A stretch of DNA of 41,905 nucleotides. Origin: a virus. The stretch covers positions 1 to 41,905 of IMG/VR virus record IMGVR_UViG_3300029684_000017. The stretch is one strand, 5' to 3'. Below are positions 1,425 through 33,575 of this stretch, piece by piece. The translations under genes were made by a program, and so were the position numbers. Under the pieces are notes generated by a model. That model ran no database searches. It was not told where the DNA came from and was given only the letters and a program-made list of their open reading frames with translations. Each line of letters begins with the position of its first letter. Position 1 is the first letter of the stretch.

Positions 1425-2096
1425 TCACTTCGCATTTTTCCGGGCCTGACGATAGGATTCAAATAGCTCCGAGAATCGCTCCACGACAGCCGCATCGGCA
1501 TCGTATGATTTCAGCAATCGCGCTCCGGCGTCGAAGTCCGCGGCATAGTTTGCCGTAGTGAGAAATCCATACATCCATTTCATCAGCTGGTCGCAGACGA
1601 TGGCGTCGTCCAGCTGTTCCATCGTGATACGCTTGCGGGCCGGAGCAGTTGCCGGGACCGTGGACGGTTGTGCTGTTTTGGTACTTTGTGCCGCCGCCCG
1701 GTTGGCGTTCTCCGTGTGCCGCTCGTCCGTGTCCGCATCTTTCGTATCGTCGATGCAGAACAACCCGTTAAGGGCATATTTGCGGGCATAACTGGATGCT
1801 GTACCCGTGATCTGCGACCCGTCCATACCCTTCTTGTCGAGGTCCTCACGAGCAAAGGCCGTTGCCGTTTCGACCTCTCCGGCGGCGTTCGTGATGCGCG
1901 CCGTGGCCTTCACGTAGTAGCGGTCCCCGACGGCGACGATGTCGTCGCACAGGTTCAGGACGCATTCGTGCGCCTTGAGTATCGGTTTGACCGCTTCAAG
2001 AATATCCTCGCAGCTCCGGTACCTGTATTTCCCGAAGCTGTTATACTGCCCTTTGGGGGCTTTCAATTCCGACTGGATGGCGATTAACTCTTTCAT
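1425..2096 (-). CDS. erf: ERF-family single-strand annealing recombinase
   Basis: N-terminus ELKAPKGQYNSFGKYRYRSCEDILEAVKPIL and motif GSQITGTASSYARKYALNGLFCIDD are typical of the ERF superfamily. Confidence 0.85.
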   Translation of the reverse strand: MKELIAIQSELKAPKGQYNSFGKYRYRSCEDILEAVKPILKAHECVLNLCDDIVAVGDRYYVKATARITNAAGEVETATAFAREDLDKKGMDGSQITGTASSYARKYALNGLFCIDDTKDADTDERHTENANRAAAQSTKTAQPSTVPATAPARKRITMEQLDDAIVCDQLMKWMYGFLTTANYAADFDAGARLLKSYDADAAVVERFSELFESYRQARKNAK

Positions 2097-4258: not shown

Positions 4259-4280
4259 AATTACAAGAACTTATCACTTG

Positions 4281-4351
4281 TTGAGCTACCCGGATTCGAA
4301 CCGGAAGCGCCACCTCCAAAGGGTGATGTGTTACCGTTACACCATAGCTCA
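4281..4351 (-). tRNA. tRNA-Gln (anticodon UUG)
   Basis: Cloverleaf folded by hand. Acceptor TGAGCTA/TAGCTCA, anticodon stem TCACC/GGTGG, loop CTTTGGA, T-arm TCCGG-TTCGAAT-CCGGG. No encoded CCA. Confidence 0.85.
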
Positions 4352-4499
4352 ATAAATGCCGGTCTTTCCCGGCTGCCAGATGCTTTCGCATAACCTGTCC
4401 GATAGAGTCAAGCGTCTGTTCCGCTTTGCCATTGCCGCGCAATCGGCAATAATCCCTTGCGCTATCGTCGCTCTACTTGCATCACCAACAAAGGGGTTG

Positions 4500-4584
4500 C
4501 GGAGGGTGAGAGATTCGAACTCCCGAAGCGTTGCCGCTCGCCGGATTAGTAAGCCGGAGCCTTCAACCACTCGGCCAACCCTCC
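4500..4584 (-). tRNA. Type-II (long variable arm) tRNA, Ser-like, apparent anticodon ACU with a mismatched 31-39 pair
   Basis: GGAGGGT acceptor, GCC/GGC D-stem, anticodon arm CCGGC-TTACTAA-TCCGG, variable stem GAGCG/CGCTT, T-arm GGGAG-TTCGAAT-CTCTC, discriminator G. Confidence 0.7.
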
Positions 4585-4650
4585 AAATATCGCCCGCGGG
4601 CCTCACGGATGGCGGGCGACGGTTCTTGTTATGACGTAAGTAAGGCGTCG

Positions 4651-6509: not shown

Positions 6510-6561
6510 GGCGTTTCAGTTTTTTTGTATATTTTTACATTTCAATACCCGGCGGTCTTCG

Positions 6562-6617
6562 TACCTTTGCTGTGTATCACAATGCAAATATGTGCATATT
6601 ATTTTAATTATGCAAAT
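6562..6617 (+). promoter_or_regulatory. Rightward promoter (-7 box TACCTTTG) with downstream ATGCAAAT operator-like boxes
   Basis: tacctttg at 6562-6569. cacaatgcaaatat at 6578-6591, overlapping the inverted repeat aatatg-tg-catatt. Second atgcaaat at 6610-6617. Confidence 0.55.
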
Positions 6618-6661
6618 TTTATGCTCATATTTTTACAAGTTTTTTAATAGTCCCTTTGTAT

Positions 6662-6958
6662 ATGATTGATTTCAAACGTTTTCGAAAAGACAAAAGGTTA
6701 ACACAGGCGGCACTTGCAAATATGTTGGGAATGGATCAAAGCCGCATTTCTCGAATGGAGAAGAACGGCGACGGATTTACGCCTGAGCATATGGACATAT
6801 TATGCAGTCGATATGCCGACATTGACGATTACGTTATCGACGACTCCAATGTCGCCCCCGCTCCCACGGTTTCCGCATTGCTGGCTTTGGTAGCTTCCCA
6901 GCAGCGCACCATCGAGAACCTTTCCGAAACCATAAAAAACCTAACTTCAAAGAACTGA
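6662..6958 (+). CDS. XRE-family HTH repressor-like protein
   Basis: KRLTQAALANMLGMDQSRISRMEKNG is a classic XRE/Cro-CI HTH. ATG at 6662 (the track starts at a TTG at 6656). Confidence 0.8.
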   Translation: MIDFKRFRKDKRLTQAALANMLGMDQSRISRMEKNGDGFTPEHMDILCSRYADIDDYVIDDSNVAPAPTVSALLALVASQQRTIENLSETIKNLTSKN

Positions 6959-6965
6959 TAAAACC

Positions 6966-7214
6966 ATGAAAGAACTGTCTGCTGCCAACATCAACGCCCG
7001 AATCACCGAAAAGCTATCCGCCGAAATCTGTCCCGTACACGGAAAAAATCCCATAATATCATGGAATGGCAATAATATGCAGGCGCGCTGCTGTTGCAAC
7101 GAGTTTCGGACATACATCGACCGGATAGCCGAATCTGTCGCCAAACGTGCGGCACAAGATGAAGCGGCCAGCCTAATCGCCGCTGCCCTCCTTGACGACT
7201 GCGATGGTGAATAA
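6966..7214 (+). CDS. Hypothetical Cys-containing protein (82 aa)
   Basis: ORF 7 nt after the repressor-like gene. Confidence 0.55.
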   Translation: MKELSAANINARITEKLSAEICPVHGKNPIISWNGNNMQARCCCNEFRTYIDRIAESVAKRAAQDEAASLIAAALLDDCDGE

Positions 7215-7367
7215 ATACACCTTGCGTTCGCCGTTGGCATCGAGTTTCTGCTTCAATTCAGTGAGTTTGTCGATCATTTCATCGACGCTTGTCGCCTCCA
7301 ACTTCGGGAAGCGAATGGTTGTTGTTTTTCCCATAATTCAAAAAATGTTTTTCAAAGAACTAATTCT

Positions 7368-7721
7368 ATGGACCTCAAAGACTACATCGCCGACGTTATC
7401 AGTCAGACGATCGAGGGCGTACAAATCGCGCAAAAGAGATTCAATCCAGACGCAGTAATACTACCGCCTATAATTGCTCCAACCTATCATGATTCGGCAA
7501 CGCCCGACTGTATTGTCATTAATAAGACCCTGCGCCATTTAACACATCTGGAATTCGATATTGAGGTAACGGCAGAGCATAAAGACACAACAGGGGCAAA
7601 AGCCGGATTTTGTATTTCCGTAGCGGGGTTCGGCGCTAACACTGACAGCATCCGACGGGACAACGCAGCGAACCGACTGTCTTTCCAAATTACTATCGTA
7701 TTGCCTGAAATTCTTTCGTAA
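7368..7721 (+). CDS. Small protein with a Trypco2-like (trypsin-co-occurring domain 2) sequence pattern
   Basis: N-terminal helix LKDYIADVISQTIEGVQIAQ followed by LEFDIEVTAEHKDTTGAKAGFCISVAGFGANTDS...NRLSFQITI. Pattern recalled from conflict-system literature, not searched. Confidence 0.45.
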   Translation: MDLKDYIADVISQTIEGVQIAQKRFNPDAVILPPIIAPTYHDSATPDCIVINKTLRHLTHLEFDIEVTAEHKDTTGAKAGFCISVAGFGANTDSIRRDNAANRLSFQITIVLPEILS

Positions 7722-7974
7722 TGAGCAACATTCGGATATTTGCACTCACGCAAAAACCGAGAATGTATATTTTACGTTGGATTTTCACCCACGGTATTTG
7801 ATTTTGGGCGTCAACGAAAATGTTGGCATCGACAATCCGTGTCTCTTTGTGTATTAACGATTTCATGTTCAAAGAACGTTGTAAACCCTATTGGCGCACT
7901 ATTTCGCCCTTTCGGATTTGGTTATTCCAATCTTTTTTATATATCTTTACATTGTTTTGCGGCGTAGAACTCTT

Positions 7975-8080
7975 TACCTTTGCGGTGTAGTTCAATTCCA
8001 CAATGCAAATATAGATTAAAAATCTAATACACCACACAAAAATAGATCTAAAATATAATAATAAATATTTATGCAATTTG
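7975..8080 (+). promoter_or_regulatory. Second promoter (-7 box TACCTTTG) with the same downstream operator-like box
   Basis: tacctttg at 7975-7982. cacaatgcaaatat at 7999-8012, a 14/14 match to 6578-6591. atgcaatttg at 8071-8080. Confidence 0.55.
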
Positions 8081-8114
8081 CGAAAATTATAAAACACCTA
8101 ACATTCAGCGCATT

Positions 8115-8528
8115 ATGAGCACAATCGTAGAGCGCATAAATATCTATGCAAAACACAAGAAAACAACCAAAGCAGCTATTGAGCGAGAATCAGGGTTGCC
8201 GAATGGAACATTTAAGCCCACTACCCAATCGCTACGCATAGACGCCCAATCTAAAATAGCAAAATCATTTCCCGATTTAAATATCGGGTGGCTATTGACC
8301 GGCGAAGGATCAATGCTTAAAACTACCGACCAACCCGTCAGTCAAAGAGAAGAAGACGCAACACTTTCGGAAACTGACTTAAATAATTCAAACACTATGA
8401 AGAAGTATTTAGACCAAGTCCTTCGACAAAACGAGGAACTAATTCGGCAAAATGGGGTACTACTTGACCTATTCCGAGAAGAGAGGGCAAAAAACAAGGG
8501 CGAAGTCGCCCTAAAAAAAGAGGGCTAA
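8115..8528 (+). CDS. HTH transcriptional regulator with a C-terminal coiled coil (repressor-like, Bacteroidetes type)
   Basis: TTKAAIERESGLPNGTF ... NIGWLLTGEGSM signature. C-terminal helical region. Confidence 0.8.
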   Translation: MSTIVERINIYAKHKKTTKAAIERESGLPNGTFKPTTQSLRIDAQSKIAKSFPDLNIGWLLTGEGSMLKTTDQPVSQREEDATLSETDLNNSNTMKKYLDQVLRQNEELIRQNGVLLDLFREERAKNKGEVALKKEG

Positions 8529-8672
8529 GTGTATTCTAATTAGACTAATGCCTACCGGAGGAGAGCCGGAACCGTATGCCAAAGCACACACATAATAGCA
8601 CTAAAAATAAAATCATGCCCTTCTCCGAATACTCGGAGAGGGGTAAATTGTATAATAATAAAATGAACGTGT

Positions 8673-9035
8673 ATGGAACTTATTGCTACTTTATTGTTGA
8701 TTGTTTTCGGTATTTTACAAATCATTCTCTTCTTTAAGTTGTGGGGAATGACAAATGATGTTGCCCAGATTAAAGAATATATCGCACGCATGGATAAACG
8801 CGTCAGTAATAAATTAAAATCGGGAAAGGCACAAGGCGAACAAAAAGACGCTTCCATGCCCGATTGGGTAATCGGAAGTCGCGTAGTTCGCATAGCAACA
8901 GAAGAGCAGATGAAAATAATCAGCCTTAATTCCAATGGGTCCTTTGTATGTACAAAAGACGGAATAGTCGCCGGTTCATACCGTCGTGATGAACTTATGA
9001 CATGGACTGAATGGCTTGAACATCTCAAAAAATAA
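8673..9035 (+). CDS. Membrane-anchored small protein (120 aa)
   Basis: N-terminal TM helix LIATLLLIVFGILQIILFFKLWG. AT-rich accessory region. Confidence 0.65.
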   Translation: MELIATLLLIVFGILQIILFFKLWGMTNDVAQIKEYIARMDKRVSNKLKSGKAQGEQKDASMPDWVIGSRVVRIATEEQMKIISLNSNGSFVCTKDGIVAGSYRRDELMTWTEWLEHLKK

Positions 9036-9066
9036 TATATTGAAAAATCAAATAAAATAGGTTAAC

Positions 9067-9516
9067 ATGAAGAAACTTTTACTATTTTCCGTATGTATGG
9101 CTATTTTATGTTCATGTAACTCCAATCAGAAGAAAGCCGAACGATTGGTAAAACAATACATGAAAGAAAATCTCGACGACTATAAAAGTTACGAGCCTAT
9201 TAAATTTTCAGAACTTGAACCGATCCTGATAAAAGAACAAGCGGAAAAAGTTCTTAAAGTAGCAATAGATCATAAAAAAAGCCGCGAAGATTATATATAT
9301 TACTTGGATTCAACCCAATTAAAGGAACAGTTAGCATACATCGCTTCAATAGATACTGATATAGATTCGTTAAAAAGGGTTTGCGATTCAGCATCCGTTA
9401 ATGACATTCACGGTTGGTGCTTTGAGCATTCATACCGTTCTGCCAATAAAATAGGAGCAATGGAGAAAAAAACAGAAATATTTTATTTCAATAGAGATAT
9501 TACCGAGATTCAATAA
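9067..9516 (+). CDS. Lipoprotein (149 aa)
   Basis: Signal peptide MKKLLLFSVCMAILCSC with a lipobox Cys followed by NSNQKK. Confidence 0.8.
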   Translation: MKKLLLFSVCMAILCSCNSNQKKAERLVKQYMKENLDDYKSYEPIKFSELEPILIKEQAEKVLKVAIDHKKSREDYIYYLDSTQLKEQLAYIASIDTDIDSLKRVCDSASVNDIHGWCFEHSYRSANKIGAMEKKTEIFYFNRDITEIQ

Positions 9517-9534
9517 CCCCACCCTCCCCACTCC

Positions 9535-9561
9535 CGCCCCGACTTCTGCCGGGGCGTTTTT
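9535..9561 (+). terminator. Rho-independent terminator
   Basis: Stem cgccccg / cggggcg, 8-nt loop, ttttt. Confidence 0.75.
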
Positions 9562-9584
9562 ACCCAAAGTGTAGAATAATTCAC

Positions 9585-9604
9585 TACCTTTGCGCGTTAT
9601 TTGC
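9585..9604 (+). promoter_or_regulatory. Third TACCTTTG -7 box with a downstream inverted GCAAAT core
   Basis: tacctttg at 9585-9592; atttgc at 9599-9604. Confidence 0.5.
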
Positions 9605-9641
9605 TCGGAAAATGTTATATTTGTAACAAAGAACCACTACT

Positions 9642-10280
9642 ATGCTTGAAACTATTTGGAGCTGGATCATGGAAAACTACCCCGGCATATTCGCAATGCT
9701 GGTGGTTGCATATGCTGTATGGCATATAAGAGGATGGTATTCCAAATTCGACGCAAGGGTGAAAGCATGTGAAGCCCACGAACCAGCCATTGAGGAGATA
9801 AAAAACGACGTGAAAACCCTACAAAAGGATATTGACAGCGTTAAAATGGATGTGAAGAGTATCAAAGATTATTTGGTAACAAAAGATCAAAAAGCAATAA
9901 ACGTTTTAGCGATGAAAAATAGCCCGATGGTTCTCAATGAGAACGGAAAGCAGATATATGAAATTATAGTAGGTGATAAATTCCTCGCTGATAATAAGAC
10001 GCTTTTATTCGAGCGTATCGATAGTAAAAAACCTCGCACTCCGCTGGATGTAGAGATTGCAGCCAAAGAGGTGCTTATTGACCTCTTGAGTAGCCCCATA
10101 TTTGATGGAATTAAAAACATAGTATACAATTATCCATCGATTCAAATTAAACAAGAGGGCAAAGACATCGATTATGCTATTTCCATATCAGATGTATGCT
10201 TCGTGTTAAGTATTCCTTTGCGCGATATGTATCTGGAAGCGCACCCGGAAATAAACACGAAGGATAACGATAACAAATAG
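9642..10280 (+). CDS. Membrane-anchored coiled-coil protein with an uncharacterised C-terminal domain (212 aa)
   Basis: TM segment YPGIFAMLVVAYAVWHI, heptad-like IEEIKNDVKTLQKDIDSVKMDVKSIKDYL, and a globular C-terminal half. Confidence 0.7.
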   Translation: MLETIWSWIMENYPGIFAMLVVAYAVWHIRGWYSKFDARVKACEAHEPAIEEIKNDVKTLQKDIDSVKMDVKSIKDYLVTKDQKAINVLAMKNSPMVLNENGKQIYEIIVGDKFLADNKTLLFERIDSKKPRTPLDVEIAAKEVLIDLLSSPIFDGIKNIVYNYPSIQIKQEGKDIDYAISISDVCFVLSIPLRDMYLEAHPEINTKDNDNK

Positions 10281-10303
10281 CGATAACACCGAACACCCAT
10301 CGA

Positions 10304-10331
10304 CCCCGGGCCACGAGCTCGGGGATTTTTT
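10304..10331 (+). terminator. Probable terminator
   Basis: ccccg...cgggg stem followed by atttttt. Confidence 0.55.
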
Positions 10332-10454
10332 GTACATATTGAACAATAAATCGCCTTGAAGCAGGCTTTTCCCCTAAGAAAAACACAAACTTTTTGAACA
10401 ATTCACCCCATCAATCCCCTGGCCACAAAAAAAATCTGAAAATTTTTCGTCGAA

Positions 10455-10518: not shown

Positions 10519-10602
10519 GACAAGACGAGCGGTAGCATCCGCGAATCTTAACGACGAAAGGACACGTTGTAGGACACACGTTGTTGGTAGTAGTTCTTGG
10601 AA

Positions 10603-10640
10603 GGGTCTGTGGCTATTCATCCGGCCGCAGACCCTTTTTT
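10603..10640 (+). terminator. Strong intrinsic terminator ending 2 nt before the terS start codon
   Basis: 11-bp stem gggtctgtggc / gccgcagaccc (one G-U pair), 10-nt loop, tttttt. ATG at 10643. Confidence 0.8.
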
Positions 10641-10642
10641 CT

Positions 10643-11152
10643 ATGGCAAAGAGAACGGAAGGAATCAAGAAGACAACCGGCAACAAGCCCACCCGCAAAG
10701 TGGGCCGCCCTCGTGCATATACCCCCGAAGCTCTTGAAGCCAAGTTCGAAGAGTATGTCGAATGGGTGAAAGCGAATCCGCGATACAGCAACAAGGTATT
10801 GGGCGACGGCTCGATAATTCCCGTACCCTATGAACGCCCGCTGACATTGTCCAGCTTCGCCGTATTCGCCGGGATAATCCCTGATACATTCAGAGAATAC
10901 GAGAAACTCGACGAGTTTTTCGGCGTGTGTGCGCGCGTGCGCGCGCGAATCGAATCCGATCAGTTGGAGGGTGCTATGTGTGAGCAGTACAACCCGACGA
11001 TTGCGTCGCGTGTTCTTCATCTTGCCGACCGCCAGGATGTGACAACAAACGGCAAGGCGATAACGGTTGCAACACAGCCTATTCCCGTGGTCCTCGATCC
11101 CGAAGCTGCTAAGATCATCCAGTCCATAGGCAAAATGACAGTAAAGGAATGA
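10643..11152 (+). CDS. terS: Terminase small subunit
   Basis: GRPRAYTPEALEAKFEEYVEWVKANP...PLTLSSFAVFAGI..DTFREY pattern of Terminase_2-type small subunits. Immediately precedes terL. Confidence 0.8.
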   Translation: MAKRTEGIKKTTGNKPTRKVGRPRAYTPEALEAKFEEYVEWVKANPRYSNKVLGDGSIIPVPYERPLTLSSFAVFAGIIPDTFREYEKLDEFFGVCARVRARIESDQLEGAMCEQYNPTIASRVLHLADRQDVTTNGKAITVATQPIPVVLDPEAAKIIQSIGKMTVKE

Positions 11153-12384
11153 CGCCCGATCCCGTAACATACAGAGGCAAGACATACAAAGTCAAAATGT
11201 ACCTCTACCAGCTATACGCCGGGAGCGGCGCCGTCGTCCGTATCTTCGACGAGGGAAGTTCCCGATCTGGAAAGACTTTCGACACGGCGGACTTTCTGTA
11301 TGACATCTGCGCATCATCGTCCGTACCTCTTAAAATATACTGTTATCGGGCCACGCTTCAAGATTGCAAGGAAAAGACGCTGGACGACTTCCGCAAGAAG
11401 CTGCAACTACGCGGCGTATACGATCCCGATTGTATGCGTGGCGAAAATATTCTCCCTGAATATCGCATCAAGGATAGTGTGATTCGTTTCCGGGGTCTCG
11501 ACAAAATGGATGTCAAAGAGGGCCACGACTGCGACATAGTATATTTCAACGAGATGCTCGACGGTGTAAGCCGTGCGCAATTCGACAATATCACCATGCG
11601 CTGCACGCGGATGGTCATCGGTGACTGGAACCCGAAATACACGGAGCATTGGGCGTTCCATATGGAGGGCGCCCCGGATACTATTTTCACGCACACGACG
11701 TACAAGGATAATCCCTTCTGCCCGGCGGGGGTTCGTCGCACAATTGAGGGATACGAACCCACACCCGAGAATATCGCCGCCGGAACTGCCGACGAATGGC
11801 GTTGGAAAGTGTACGGCCTCGGAGTACGTGCCGCGCAGGAGGGGCTAATATTCCCCGACATCGACTGGATCGACGAATTCCCCGAAGACATCGAACGCGT
11901 TGTATTGGGCCTCGACTTCGGATTCACAGCAGACCCCACAGCCTGCGTACGTGTCGGATTCCGTGTCCCGAACCATCTTTATTTGCAGGAGCTGATATAT
12001 CAGCCTATCGACGACACTTCGAAATTGTATGCAGCGCTTTCGCCGCACTTCACAAACGGAGTATCCCGATGCTATGCAGATAGCGCCGACAAATATGCCA
12101 AATCCCCCGAAAGCATGATAACCGCAATGCGCATTCAAGGGCTTACGGTCATCCCCGTGCGGAAATACCCGGGGTCTGTCATGGACGGCATCACGGCCAT
12201 GAAAGGATGCAAGATACACTGCATTCGTTCGCGCAACATGCTGATAGAGGCAAATTCGTACGTGTGGGAGACGGTGAACGGCATCGCCATAAATTACCCG
12301 CACGACGAATTCAATCACCTATGGGACGCCGCCAGATATGCCGTTCAGTCTGAATTCAAGAACCTTATTCAAATAGCTGCATAA
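11149..12384 (+). CDS. terL: Terminase large subunit (PBSX-like family)
   Basis: Walker A GSSRSGKT, 411 aa, ATGA overlap with terS. Confidence 0.9.
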   Translation: MTPDPVTYRGKTYKVKMYLYQLYAGSGAVVRIFDEGSSRSGKTFDTADFLYDICASSSVPLKIYCYRATLQDCKEKTLDDFRKKLQLRGVYDPDCMRGENILPEYRIKDSVIRFRGLDKMDVKEGHDCDIVYFNEMLDGVSRAQFDNITMRCTRMVIGDWNPKYTEHWAFHMEGAPDTIFTHTTYKDNPFCPAGVRRTIEGYEPTPENIAAGTADEWRWKVYGLGVRAAQEGLIFPDIDWIDEFPEDIERVVLGLDFGFTADPTACVRVGFRVPNHLYLQELIYQPIDDTSKLYAALSPHFTNGVSRCYADSADKYAKSPESMITAMRIQGLTVIPVRKYPGSVMDGITAMKGCKIHCIRSRNMLIEANSYVWETVNGIAINYPHDEFNHLWDAARYAVQSEFKNLIQIAA

Positions 12385-27589: not shown

Positions 27590-28093
27590 ATGGCACGGAT
27601 GACTGAAATAATCATTAACATCGGTTACAAACTGAGCGAAATGTTCCAAACGGTTTATGGATGGATCGCTGCGGCAGGCATTTTCATCGTGAATTTCTTC
27701 GCTGGGTATGAGATGGCCATCAATGCCGTAGTAGTATGTGTGGCCCTCGATACTGCCTGGGGCATTGCGGCCCAAATCAAACGCGGGCATTTCGCGCTCT
27801 CCGAGCTCGGACGGCATGGGATGCTGTCTAAATTGGCGCTGTACGCTTCGGTGATCGCAGCGTTTGTGCTGATCGAGCGAATGGCGGAATTGGAATCACA
27901 ACTCGCCGTGATCGCTATCTGCACCCTGATCTGTCTGGTCGAACTTTGGTCGATGGGAGGATCGGCGCTGATCGTAAGCCCGAAAATGCCGTTTCTGCGA
28001 ATATTCCGTGAAGTGCTGGCCGGAGAAGTCGCCCGGAAAATGCAGGTCCCGGTCGAAGAGGCCAAAAAGTATTTGGACGGAACTAATAAATAA
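27590..28093 (+). CDS. Holin-like membrane protein
   Basis: 167 aa with 3-4 hydrophobic helices, immediately upstream of the lysin-like gene. Confidence 0.6.
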   Translation: MARMTEIIINIGYKLSEMFQTVYGWIAAAGIFIVNFFAGYEMAINAVVVCVALDTAWGIAAQIKRGHFALSELGRHGMLSKLALYASVIAAFVLIERMAELESQLAVIAICTLICLVELWSMGGSALIVSPKMPFLRIFREVLAGEVARKMQVPVEEAKKYLDGTNK

Positions 28094-28100
28094 AATCAAC

Positions 28101-28511
28101 ATGACACGAGGTCTTAGAAACAACAATCCGCTCAATATCGAGAAGAGCAAGGGCGGCAATCCCTGGCAGGGCGAGATCGTGCCGTCGGAAGACAGCCGTT
28201 TCGCACAATTCAGGACGATAGCCTACGGATACCGGGCGGCTTTCAAGCTGCTTAACAACTACCAGCGCAACTACGGACTGGACACCATCCGAAAGATGAT
28301 CGGACGCTGGGCGCCGTCGGAGGAGAATCACACGGAAGCCTATATCCGTACCGTGGCCGAGAAATCGGGTGTACCTGCCGACAGCCGGATCACCACGACG
28401 AACCGCGATGTGATGGTGCCTGTCGTTGCGGCGATGTCGTATGTAGAAAACGGTGTCGAGGCCAAGATATTCGACGTACAGGCCGGATGGGATTTGTTCA
28501 TTAAGGGATGA
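28101..28511 (+). CDS. Putative peptidoglycan hydrolase / endolysin (P5-like family)
   Basis: LRNNNPLNIEKS...WQGE...F..FRTIAYGYRA...IGRWAPSEENHTEAYI signature. ATG at 28101. Confidence 0.55.
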   Translation: MTRGLRNNNPLNIEKSKGGNPWQGEIVPSEDSRFAQFRTIAYGYRAAFKLLNNYQRNYGLDTIRKMIGRWAPSEENHTEAYIRTVAEKSGVPADSRITTTNRDVMVPVVAAMSYVENGVEAKIFDVQAGWDLFIKG

Positions 28512-29008
28512 AACGCCTAATCCTATACCTGCTTACCGCGCTCATCGCCGGAGCAATGCTCTTTGGCTGGGGATACCGCAGGGGAGCGGACTCGGTGGGA
28601 ATCCGGTCGGAAGTGCGTATCGATACCGTGTTCTACGAGCGGCCGCAGTCGTACGGTTTTTCCGAACAGCTGGTGACGGTGAATGTCCCGCGGCTGCTGT
28701 TTGCTCCCGCGGATACGGTGGTGCGTGTTGTCGAGGCTGTGAACGGAACCGACAGCGTGCAGATGGAGGTTCCGGTGCGCACGCTCGAATACCGGGATTC
28801 TACCTACTATGCCCGGGTGTCGGGCCCTGTTATCGGGGATTTGGCGCCCCGGCTGGACTGGATCGAAACCTACAATCGGACCGTCACCCGGACCACGCCC
28901 GCCCGCAGCCGGTTTGCTGTGACGGTTGGAGCCGGAGTAGGATATACTCCGCAGGGATTTCAGCCGACGGTCGGGGTGCAGGCCGGCATAGTGCTGTGGG
29001 CAAAATAA
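28508..29008 (+). CDS. Membrane-anchored lysis-cassette protein (spanin-like candidate)
   Basis: N-terminal anchor LILYLLTALIAGAMLFGW. ATGA overlap with the lysin-like gene. Confidence 0.5.
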   Translation: MKRLILYLLTALIAGAMLFGWGYRRGADSVGIRSEVRIDTVFYERPQSYGFSEQLVTVNVPRLLFAPADTVVRVVEAVNGTDSVQMEVPVRTLEYRDSTYYARVSGPVIGDLAPRLDWIETYNRTVTRTTPARSRFAVTVGAGVGYTPQGFQPTVGVQAGIVLWAK

Positions 29009-32066: not shown

Positions 32067-33380
32067 TCACTCCAAAAGTTTGACCAGATCGACCTTCATA
32101 TCCTCATCGATGTCTCGATAGCGGGCGAATGCCTTGCTGCCTTCTTTATGACCCGACAATGCTCCGACAAGATTGGGGTCCTTGACTTGTTTGTATAGGT
32201 TGCCTACGAAAGTGCGTCGCGCCAAGTGGGACGATGCGACCTCCCAAATAGGTCGTTGCTCCGGATCTCGGGTAAGCTGATTCAGGATCGTTACTTTCCG
32301 TTTCAATCCAGCGGCAAGGAAAATCCGTTTAATCGCTTTGTTGTACTGCTGTTCTGCGATAAGTGGCAAAAGAGACGGACCCTCATAACGGGCATAACGG
32401 TCCAGTATTTCGCGAGCAATGGAATTGAGAGGAACCCTGACTGTTATAGGGCGCCCGTCCTTTGTTTTGCGAGGAATATATTCAATAGCTCCGCGAATTA
32501 GATTGTCTTTCGTCAATGCATATAAGTCACCAACCCGACACCCGATCAAGCATTGGAATACGAAGATGTCTCGTTGAATGGATAGCCGGGGATGTCGAGA
32601 AAGATTTGTGTGAAATATTCTATTCCGCTCGTCTATAGTAATATAGTAAGGGGTCCCATAAACGCAGTCTTCAATAGCATATTTCTTAAAAGGGTTGTTC
32701 GTTGTCTTATCATTATCTACCGCCCATATAAATATAGTCCTCAGCTTCTTCATCATGCCGCTGATCGTGTTCGATCCTCGCGGGCTCGGCTTACGGGATT
32801 CAGGAACCTGCTTGTATATTTGAGGATTGGCAGTAGCGATAACATGCTCGTTGCGCAGATAATTGTCGATAACATACAAGTCATCCAATGACAAAGTGTC
32901 AATATCCAAGATATATCCGGGTTCTTTGATCTGTCTCCACAGCTCAAACCTTTTCAATATTCGGAACAAAACCCTGAAATTGGCCTGGCGAACCTGCGAT
33001 AGCTTGCGTTTCTGAATAAATTCATCACAAATATCGAAGAACCCGGGTTTTAGCAAATGAAACTTTTCAGGGTGCAGACGCTTGTCCACTTCGATACGGA
33101 ATGTATCGGATAATACATTCTTTTTGTCGGGAAGCGAAGCATATACATCCAATAAAAGATTCTTCCATTTTGCAACATCGGCGTTGAACTCTCCCCTTGC
33201 GATAGTATCATAAATCACTTTCGATTTAATTTCTTGCCGCTTCGGGTCCCAATGTGCCGGATTTATTTCTAAATTTGACGTGTAAAAAAGTTGAACGTAC
33301 CTGCCGTCCCGAATTCGGAACCGAACTTTGCACTTGACGCCTTTTTTTGAGGTGCGAACGAAAGCAGAGATAGTAGCCAT
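32067..33380 (-). CDS. int: Tyrosine integrase (Bacteroidetes phage type with an N-terminal arm-binding domain)
   Basis: CLIGCRVGDL (Arg), HLARRTF (HxxR) and GHKEGSKAFARY (His...Tyr). Start taken at MATISAFVRTSKKG. Confidence 0.9.
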   Translation of the reverse strand: MATISAFVRTSKKGVKCKVRFRIRDGRYVQLFYTSNLEINPAHWDPKRQEIKSKVIYDTIARGEFNADVAKWKNLLLDVYASLPDKKNVLSDTFRIEVDKRLHPEKFHLLKPGFFDICDEFIQKRKLSQVRQANFRVLFRILKRFELWRQIKEPGYILDIDTLSLDDLYVIDNYLRNEHVIATANPQIYKQVPESRKPSPRGSNTISGMMKKLRTIFIWAVDNDKTTNNPFKKYAIEDCVYGTPYYITIDERNRIFHTNLSRHPRLSIQRDIFVFQCLIGCRVGDLYALTKDNLIRGAIEYIPRKTKDGRPITVRVPLNSIAREILDRYARYEGPSLLPLIAEQQYNKAIKRIFLAAGLKRKVTILNQLTRDPEQRPIWEVASSHLARRTFVGNLYKQVKDPNLVGALSGHKEGSKAFARYRDIDEDMKVDLVKLLE

Positions 33381-33575
33381 CGGGATAGTATTTAAGTGGT
33401 GGTGCAAGTTTAGCTTTTTTGCACCACACAACCAAATACAAATGTCCTTATTTGTCCGGAGTTGTCACAAATAAAACCACGTAAAACACGGAGGCTCAAA
33501 TATAAAAGCAAAATAGACAACAAGATACAAATGCGCCGACGGACAGCAATGTGGCCGCGGTGGGGCTACAATACG

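Follow-up and report, generated by a model that had tools for sequence, protein, structure and literature searches.

A probable multi-slot accessory-gene hotspot between immunity-type regulators and terS in a temperate Parabacteroides siphovirus

Temperate phages are abundant among the gut Bacteroidales, and there has been almost no work on how they control lysogeny or on the immunity encoded by their prophages. The 41,905-nucleotide stretch analysed here (IMG/VR record IMGVR_UViG_3300029684_000017, positions 1 to 41,905; hereafter the window) is the genome of a temperate tailed phage of Bacteroidales type, for which we favour the label Parabacteroides siphovirus. Between a gene for an XRE-family helix-turn-helix (HTH) regulator and the small terminase gene terS, it carries an island (7368-10331) with five open reading frames (ORFs), here called A to E, and a preliminary description of the sequence had proposed these as a defence or superinfection-exclusion cluster. 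What kind of locus is this, do its genes form one system, and would they protect a lysogen? Comparison with related phages indicates that the region is very probably the window's version of a multi-slot hotspot for accessory genes (morons), extending from the immunity-type regulators to terS. Protection of the lysogen from superinfecting phages is the most likely role of the cargo, at somewhat less than an even chance as judged from the sequences. When architecture and anti-phage function are blended into a single figure, we put the reading at about 0.5. The features that make up the locus, with the cargo positions called slots 1 to 3, are as follows.

7868-8013, plus strand: promoter block of the B operon, containing TACCTTTG (7975-7982) and conserved between variable flanks (78-98% identity, about 30 relatives)
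8115-8528, plus strand: B, probable immunity-type HTH regulator; N-terminal part (8115-8288) variable, C-terminal coiled coil (8289-8528) conserved
8529-8655, plus strand: conserved leader that joins B to slot 1 and folds into a hairpin of 13 base pairs (bp) at 8616-8645 (-23 kcal/mol, z -6.7)
8673-9035, plus strand: C, slot-1 cargo with an N-terminal membrane anchor (hydrophobicity score KD19 of 2.9 at residues 3-21) and a small C-terminal domain
9067-9516, plus strand: D, slot-1 cargo, a lipoprotein with the lipobox LCSC
9535-9561, plus strand: terminator 1, a hairpin (9535-9556, -15.1 kcal/mol) followed by a T-run
9585-9623, plus strand: promoter motifs of the E cassette from a motif search, TACCTTTG at 9585 and TATATTTG at 9616
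9642-10280, plus strand: E, slot-2 cargo with an N-terminal hydrophobic helix, a coiled coil whose length varies in the family and a conserved C-terminal domain of about 110 residues
10304-10331, plus strand: terminator 2, a hairpin (10304-10324, -15.7 kcal/mol) followed by a T-run, at the start of the linker 10304-10423
10423-10429, no strand: empty slot-3 junction, where collinearity breaks in most loci (e.g. in L007, 10304-10423 corresponds to 4480-4599 and 10429 to 6143)
10599-10640, plus strand: strong terminator-like hairpin with U6 at the late-operon boundary (16-bp stem, -29.1 kcal/mol, z -5.8)
10643-11152, plus strand: terS, the right conserved flank of the hotspot (GP3_package 1.2e-15, phrog_606 2.4e-22)

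The relatives were collected by a search of IMG/VR with terL, the large terminase gene, which yielded 44 loci, 42 of them with 97-99% identical terL. The mosaic was mapped by tblastn and blastn against these loci, and architectures were counted in the 31 loci that span the region. Among these 31 relatives with 97-99% identical terL we found 23 distinct gene architectures. The order runs from the promoter block through an optional F5 gene, B, slot 1, terminator 1, slot 2, terminator 2 and slot 3 to terS. The blocks 7868-8013, 8289-8655, 9518-9561, 10304-10423 and 10429 onward are kept in tens of loci, the rest is variable, and the breakpoints of the mosaic fall on regulatory elements. The comparison thus shows near-identical phages apparently swapping cassettes by recombination at short conserved linkers, namely the promoter block, the leader hairpin and the two terminators. 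That this is an accessory block, as had been proposed, is borne out by the architectures, and the alternative of conserved core genes is not.

The same comparison bears on whether the island is one system. Full-length copies in the first 44 loci number one for C, five for D, four for E and none for A. D occurs without C in six loci (L004, L008, L024, L030, L040 and L101), C without D in L044, and E without C or D in L025, L028, L032, L036 and L058; all three stand together only in the window's own type (L099 and L100). Because C, D and E assort independently in the relatives, they are separate cassettes, and the earlier suggestion that the combination forms a single undescribed module was not upheld.

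The composition of the locus, foreign to the rest of the window, agrees with this picture. The GC content of 7368-10331 is 39.3% vs. 50.4% for the remainder of the window, as the reported AT-richer stretch of about 3 kb before terS would require, and the lowest 1-kb values of the 41.9 kb lie at 8501-9500 (0.360) and 9001-10000 (0.365). All five ORFs were recovered where they had been placed. By gene, the GC content is 32.9% in D, 39.0% in E, 39.1% in C, 42.3% in B and 46.9% in A, with 52.5% in terL and 53.3% in terS. The AT-rich part proper begins at about 7722, i.e. 3' of A. A is the less deviant gene and is coupled to the XRE gene in relatives (a gap of 4 nucleotides (nt) in L054 and L059), and its earlier inclusion in the AT-rich island had to be given up. 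The slot-1 and slot-2 cargo families of the relatives are all AT-rich (GC 31-46%).

How are these genes expressed? The motif TACCTTTG occurs at exactly three sites in the window, 6562, 7975 and 9585, all on the plus strand and intergenic; the latter two are the promoter motifs reported before, and the site at 6562 is additional. About 0.95 sites are expected by chance, and at least three are reached in 10 of 100 shuffles. The count by itself is weak evidence; position and conservation are stronger. In the relatives, the operon's first gene is preceded by TACCTTTG at a distance of 118-130 nt. None of the 31 slot-1 genes of the relatives has a TAnnTTTG motif of its own, as against all 18 slot-2 lead genes, and C and D, in operon position behind B, likewise have no promoter motif of their own. 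E homologues and other slot-2 lead genes are preceded by the same pair of motifs as E, at distances of 57-65 and 26-34 nt. The promoter motifs of the units match the host housekeeping consensus. Because of this cross-locus promoter rule, the window appears to hold two transcription units, P7975-B-C-D-T1 and P9585-E-T2, and not five independently expressed genes. The statement that the block has its own promoters and terminators thus stands for the two units and fails for C and D, which lie behind B.

Both terminators were confirmed as hairpins with T-runs, and both lie in conserved linkers. The 44-bp linker between slot 1 and slot 2 (9518-9561) is 95-100% identical in 13 loci with differing cargo on either side, and the linker 10304-10423 is conserved in 34 loci between variable cargo. 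A generic terminator scan of the window found 8 against 5.5 expected. The hairpin at 10599-10640 ends 2 nt before the ATG of terS, within a block conserved in about 40 loci. Late-gene transcription must pass through it, which implies an antitermination mechanism.

The two regulator genes adjoin the variable cargo, and the region upstream of B has a paralogue upstream of the XRE gene.

6521-6618, plus strand: XRE promoter/operator region, with TACCTTTG at 6562-6569, a paralogue of the B promoter region
6656-6958, plus strand: XRE-family HTH regulator, 100 residues (HTH_3 1.1e-7)
6960-7350, no strand: insert of 391 bp between XRE and A, with the 14-bp direct repeat D5 at 6946-6959 and 7351-7364
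7368-7721, plus strand: A, 117 residues, a sub-threshold Trypco2/Pepco relative that belongs to the XRE-linked variable position

Direct repeats pair the two promoters over 6521-6541 and 7933-7953 (90%), 6562-6599 and 7975-8012, and 6605-6618 and 8066-8079. The elements that they have in common are TTTTTT[G/A]TATAT[T/C]TTTACATT, then TACCTTTGC.GTGTA...CACAATGCAAATAT, and T[A/T]ATTATGCAA[A/T]TT. This paralogy suggests co-regulation of XRE and B. The motif ATGCAAAT was tried as a specific operator and rejected, its count not being significant (4 vs. 3.15 expected); the paralogy of the promoters is unaffected.

Both regulators are allelic. In the XRE gene of the relatives the N-terminal domain is swapped and the C-terminal tail is common, and the alleles L054_107 and L059_98 have the common ending ...ASQQRTIENLSETIKNLTSKN. 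B has at least seven N-terminal alleles on a common C-terminal half, which together with the leader (8289-8655) is conserved in about 30 loci. The earlier reading called B a repressor-like HTH protein. B has no Pfam match of its own; it matches phrog_8 at 1.3e-4, and one allele at the B locus is an HTH_3 domain (2.5e-6) fused in frame to the C-terminal half of B. B also contains the motif ...NxxWLLTGEGSM, which we take to be typical of Bacteroidales phage HTH proteins. From general phage biology, allelic DNA-binding domains in otherwise identical phages would have the look of immunity regulators. The placing of the island in the lysogeny region proved sound, since it adjoins immunity-type regulators of a temperate phage with an integrase.

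The leader between B and slot 1 is itself variable at one point. In the relatives (L001-L060) the 3' arm of its hairpin is a G-run, 8-13 long, in otherwise near-identical leaders; the window has GGAGAGGGG in place of the G-run, with A-U pairs at the positions of the relatives' G.U pairs. The G-run could act as a contingency tract prone to strand slippage, or as an RNA element that regulates slot-1 expression.

What does slot 1 carry? In the loci examined it holds ten unrelated families, each of which starts with a signal peptide, a lipobox or a membrane anchor. F6, the commonest alternative to the window's cargo, and L059_327 are secreted DUF4468 proteins, and F11 has a signal peptide with C-terminal transmembrane (TM) segments. 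The remaining families are D (F10), F20, L054_317/L102_298, a small lipoprotein of L098, the TM-anchored F14, C (F19) and L101_309. By our estimate about one third of Bacteroidales proteins start with a signal peptide, lipobox or anchor; if so, ten of ten families with exported or anchored N-termini are unlikely to have arisen by chance. L101_309 (L101 2485-3414; 309 residues) has an N-terminal TM anchor, a charged coiled coil and a C-terminal HNH nuclease domain (PF01844/PF14279), and is followed in slot 1 of L101 by a D-like lipoprotein. As a predicted membrane-tethered HNH nuclease, it is an attractive candidate for exclusion or defence.

The description of C as a single-pass membrane protein agrees with its strong N-terminal hydrophobic segment. 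C is 100% identical in L044, a 38% homologue comes from a distant phage, and Pfam, PADLOC and PDB gave no match. The anchor of C is common to family F14, and the C-terminal domains differ. By charge bias the bulk of C is probably on the cytoplasmic side, so that the protein would be membrane-anchored and not surface-exposed.

D likewise fits its description as a lipoprotein: the lipobox cysteine, C17, is invariant in the 50-sequence family alignment A2. D has only three close homologues, and its search gave 504 cluster representatives at E<=1e-3, which places it in what appears to be a large uncharacterised lipoprotein family. It matches phrog_21933 (7.9e-14; function unknown). A Pfam scan of 50 family members found no shared family, with one of the 50 weakly matching Phage_lipoprotein. 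The AlphaFold2 (AF2) model of D is confident (predicted local distance difference test score, pLDDT, 93.6) and shows a sheet of four strands, with a helix at the N-terminus and a helical hairpin as an insertion. Foldseek found no match for it in PDB at E<0.1.

For E, the cargo of slot 2, 52 homologues were found, with identities as low as 34%; every one that carries an organism name is from Bacteroidales, and NCBI attributes an identical protein to an uncultured Parabacteroides sp. None of the 52 has a Pfam domain, and the invariant motifs of alignment A1 include MKNSPxxLN, LDVE, YNxP and DVCFVLSIPLRDMYL. In the AF2 model the overall pLDDT is 76, with about 90 for the C-terminal domain of helices and one beta-hairpin, and neither PDB nor BFVD gave a Foldseek match below E=0.1. 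The description of E as a membrane-anchored coiled-coil protein fits its hydrophobic N-terminal helix and long helix, with the reservation that the anchor is only moderately hydrophobic (KD19 about 1.2 by hand calculation). In 32 of 32 aligned family members, lysine and arginine are more abundant C-terminal to the anchor than N-terminal to it, and the main domain of E is therefore probably cytoplasmic, anchored in the membrane and not surface-exposed. The claim that three products are targeted to the envelope holds for their membrane or lipid anchors and goes too far for C and E, since the main domain of each is probably in the cytoplasm.

Homologues of E are usually lone cassettes with their own promoter motif and terminator, in phages and in other mobile elements. 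In another prophage, one is encoded on the opposite strand, with tail/lysis genes on one side and an anti-repressor on the other; a second lies at a prophage end between a CI-like repressor and the integrase, and a third beside restriction-modification genes that adjoin a giant polyvalent protein in a different mobile element. Other cargo of slot 2 in the relatives includes a HicB-like/HicA-like pair in L024 (5038-5633; HicA_toxin E=0.0046), an HSDR_N nuclease-like protein, and an NYN protein that matches PADLOC HEC-09 at 5e-6. In L059 (4210-4467) and L060, an apparent remnant of a fused HicAB pair, 85 residues long, directly follows E.

Slot 3, which is empty in the window, is filled in 22 of the 31 relatives by a minus-strand three-gene operon, F4-F3-F2, of about 1.5 kb (e.g. 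L031 7710-9201). The proteins have 232, 173 and 69-90 residues, a phage-like GC content of 47-58% and no Pfam or PADLOC match. The operon carries its own TATATTTG motif, and F4 has a TAnnTTTG motif in 20 of 22 loci.

Would these units act in the lysogen, and against phages? Because of the host-consensus promoters, the three insulating terminators and the paralogy of the B and XRE promoters, we infer that a lysogen would transcribe these units. The promoter at 7975 would drive B and then slot 1, with C anchored in the inner membrane and D as a lipoprotein, up to terminator 1; slot 2 would be a self-contained promoter-E-terminator cassette. C, D and E, each acting alone and not as one system, would protect the lysogen from superinfecting phages at the envelope or at the site of DNA entry in the inner membrane. 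High expression in lysogens is common among accessory or moron loci (PMC7067206), and hypervariable phage hotspots carry defence and counter-defence genes (bioRxiv 10.1101/2024.10.15.618418). The anti-phage role is favoured because the diversity of the locus is extreme, with slot 1 restricted to envelope or membrane proteins, and because the TM-HNH nuclease in slot 1 and the HicAB-like, NYN (HEC-09-like) and HSDR_N cargo in slot 2 share the site. Diversity of this extent (23 of 31) is more typical of arms-race loci.

Several observations weigh against an anti-phage locus of a resident prophage. None of A, B, C and D has a match in PADLOC-DB v2, and the sole match of E there, ZorA (E=0.036), is coiled-coil noise. 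Pfam, PADLOC and NCBIfam contain no family that matches any protein of the island. No solved structure matches E or D, no predicted viral structure (BFVD) matches E, and PDB sequence and profile searches with A to E returned only coiled-coil or signal-peptide noise. The earlier remark that the envelope proteins belong to no family that can be named thus agrees with the Pfam, PADLOC, NCBIfam and Foldseek searches. The 504-cluster family of D need not be phage-specific. The residues that follow its lipid-anchor cysteine lack the acidic signal that we presume to direct surface export in Bacteroidetes lipoprotein sorting, and D may face the periplasm. XRE and B lie on the same strand as the late genes, and the units could equally be early-lytic. 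The contigs that carry the integrase are all at most 46.6 kb, with phage genes on both sides of int, and most assemblies of this phage are circular or episomal and not integrated prophages. On the other hand, one relative (L098) sits within a 208-kb contig, which shows that this lineage can integrate.

Other explanations have to be weighed against the favoured anti-phage role. The cargo could be genes of lysogenic conversion or host fitness with no anti-phage role, in which slot-1 proteins would remodel the envelope and benefit the lysogen in the gut, for example through adhesion, nutrient uptake, or tolerance to bile or host immunity. On balance we consider this unlikely, less probable than protection from phages. 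It would account for the limitation of slot 1 to exported, lipid-anchored or membrane-anchored proteins, for the place of D in a large general lipoprotein family, for the secreted DUF4468 protein F6 as the commonest slot-1 alternative, which has no link to defence, and for the lack of matches between the window's proteins and known defence models. It accounts less readily for 23 architectures in 31 near-identical phages, for the TM-HNH nuclease, HicAB-like pair, NYN and HSDR_N proteins in the same slots, and for C and E, which probably face the cytoplasm. That the AT-rich stretch is recombination debris, a filler with ORFs and motifs arisen by chance, has a very small chance of being right. 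The terminator count given above and that of TACCTTTG, which is only marginally higher than chance, speak for it. The 52 homologues of E with their invariant motifs, the confident D fold obtained from a 50-sequence alignment, the perfect conservation of C in L044 with a 38% homologue in a distant phage, and promoters and terminators kept as linkers in tens of loci under a strict positional rule speak against it; the comparative data effectively refute it.

A further possibility is that these are lytic-cycle genes, either a set resembling holin, o-spanin and i-spanin (C/D/E) or early regulators and injection functions used after infection. With a small membrane protein (C), a lipoprotein (D) and a protein that combines a TM segment with a coiled coil (E), the island superficially resembles a lysis set; a source gives one E homologue the label 'holin family protein', E has a weak coiled-coil match to the Rz-like spanin phrog_739 (E=0.053), and the genes lie directly upstream of the late operon on the same strand. 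The phage, however, has a complete lysis cassette at another site, 27.6-29.0 kb.

27590-28093: holin (Phage_holin_4_1, 7e-7)
28508-29008: DUF6808 protein of the lysis cassette, which also contains a candidate endolysin ORF

Moreover, C, D and E are each absent from most close relatives and assort independently, the charge bias puts the coiled coil of E in the cytoplasm, whereas an i-spanin would have it on the opposite side of the membrane, the units are set off from terS by terminators, and E homologues also occur in mobile elements that are not phages. A lytic role is distinctly improbable on this evidence. The island as the lysis cassette was rejected: the holin and DUF6808 genes are at 27590-29008, the island has no endolysin, and its genes are dispensable.

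Among known systems, the closest functional analogy to the proposed hotspot would be the lambda cI-rexA-rexB operon together with the classical morons. In the lambda immunity operon the exclusion genes are co-transcribed behind the repressor. Similarly, B is a probable HTH regulator of swappable specificity that stands first in a short operon with dispensable membrane-associated genes, and the operon closes at a terminator inside the immunity region. Unlike in lambda, the island has no homology to RexA or RexB, B is only a candidate lysogeny repressor, the B operon points toward the late genes, and its cargo is a multi-allelic slot and not a fixed pair. Classical lambdoid morons, in the concept of Juhala and Hendrix, are promoter-gene-terminator units such as HK97 gp15 and lambda bor and lom. 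E resembles them in its own promoter motifs and terminator, its presence or absence among near-identical phages and its deviant composition, so that it fits the definition of a unit with its own promoter and terminator; C and D individually do not, having the B promoter and terminator 1 in common. E differs from these morons in its Bacteroidales host with promoters of the TAnnTTTG type, and in belonging to an uncharacterised family whose main domain is probably cytoplasmic.

Two further comparisons can be drawn. The superinfection-exclusion lipoproteins include Llp of T5, Cor of phi80 and N15, and Ltp of Streptococcus phage TP-J34. D is likewise a small phage-borne lipoprotein with an invariant lipobox cysteine in a dispensable position, but shows no detected similarity to them in sequence or fold (Pfam, PDB sequence and Foldseek-PDB). 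Hotspots for defence and counter-defence genes are found in phages and satellites, e.g. P2/P4. The present locus shares with them a fixed position, conserved flanks and many alternative cargoes, some of them defence-like (TM-HNH, HicAB-like, NYN/HEC-09-like and HSDR_N). It differs from them in that most cargo here, including all of that in the window, is unannotatable, and in that slot 1 holds only exported or anchored proteins.

Protein A stands apart from the cargo of slots 1 and 2, next to the XRE gene. In the window it is separated from XRE by the insert, which is bounded by the D5 repeat (TTCAAAGAACT[G/A]AT) and contains a Cys-rich ORF of 82 residues (6966-7214, plus strand) and an overlapping ORF of 53 residues (7173-7334, minus strand); homologues of the former occur in L098-L102. 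A had been called Trypco2-like, a label which is weakly supported. A itself has no Pfam match and only four homologues. The gathering threshold of Trypco2 (PF19631) is 24.2 bits; a close homologue of A, P0059, reaches 13.7 bits (E=0.076), and a plasmid homologue (L093:4001-4357) reaches 15.7 bits (E=0.018), both below threshold. Both touch the profile at about residues 29-68, and it is the only Pfam family touched. The plasmid protein (118 residues; CP122394.1 54866-55222) is alphaproteobacterial (Geminicoccaceae) and adjoins IS66 elements. The hhalign probability for A against it is 87%, and the two have in common an MDL.D... N-terminus and a C-terminal ...F.V.VILP. strand. It hints that the Trypco2/Pepco-like superfamily has a stand-alone branch carried by mobile elements.

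The Trypco2 domain is now known as Pepco, a beta-barrel pore toxin of 117 residues that a neighbouring protease activates by removing its C-terminal tail (bioRxiv 10.1101/2025.11.14.688446); Pepco covers Trypco1 and Trypco2, protease-activated pore toxins (bioRxiv 10.1101/2025.11.14.688446; eLife PMC7159879). A has the same size as the characterised Pepco and, by eye, an amphipathic-looking N-terminal helix followed by strands with alternating polar and hydrophobic residues. Unlike Pepco, it has no adjacent protease and apparently no cleavable tail, and it is linked to a phage XRE gene and not to a sensor protease. A ends in ...FQITIVLPEILS, 3 residues past the conserved LPE and with almost no tail; the plasmid homologue is 16 residues longer. 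No peptidase was found beside A in the window and seven related loci, where the neighbours are the XRE HTH gene and small ORFs. The plasmid homologue has no directly adjacent protease, and a zincin-like metallopeptidase lies about 1.8 kb upstream on the opposite strand.

A bolder joint reading, which we regard as quite unlikely, would combine a class of membrane-tethered effectors acting at the entry site with A as a tail-less, protease-independent pore former of the Pepco type wired to a phage repressor. Within it, C, F14, E and the TM-HNH nuclease may be built alike, each with an anchor in N-out orientation and an effector domain in the cytoplasm, in many cases with a coiled coil as well. 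These effectors would be swapped behind the allelic immunity regulator, and a hypervariable poly-G hairpin in the leader may control them. A may be an abortive-infection or addiction effector, and the C-terminal domain of E may be a novel fold that targets phage DNA or proteins as they enter.

Neither morons nor hotspots of this type are new in themselves; the novelty lies in the locus, its positional rule, the unannotated families of E, D and C, and the Pepco-like A. The rule, with an operon slot for exported or anchored proteins, a slot for stand-alone cassettes and a third slot on the reverse strand, could be used to mine exclusion and defence genes of the Bacteroidales. The candidates that it nominates are the E family, the D lipoprotein family, the TM-anchored HNH nuclease and the Pepco-like protein. 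If the function is ordinary lysogenic conversion, the value of the locus would be mainly descriptive.

The remaining features of the window that bear on the lifestyle and relationships of the phage are the following.

1425-2096, minus strand: ERF recombinase
11149-12384: ORF of terL, assigned through Terminase_3 in the counterpart gene of relatives
32067-33431, minus strand: integrase, which supports a temperate lifestyle

A blastn search of the island against 50,697 phage records gave no match, and the structural region matched the same records only in a 2% hit to the crAss-like cr108_1. A terL scan of GTDB genomes returned a single distant Alistipes prophage at 64% identity. The Rfam scan found nothing in the island, and two tRNAs were its only matches in the window. 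These phage-borne tRNA genes lie in the leftward early region at 4280-4351 and 4499-4584, both on the minus strand; one is a tRNA-Gln with anticodon TTG, and the second is a long-arm tRNA-Ser, called with the unusual anticodon ACT.

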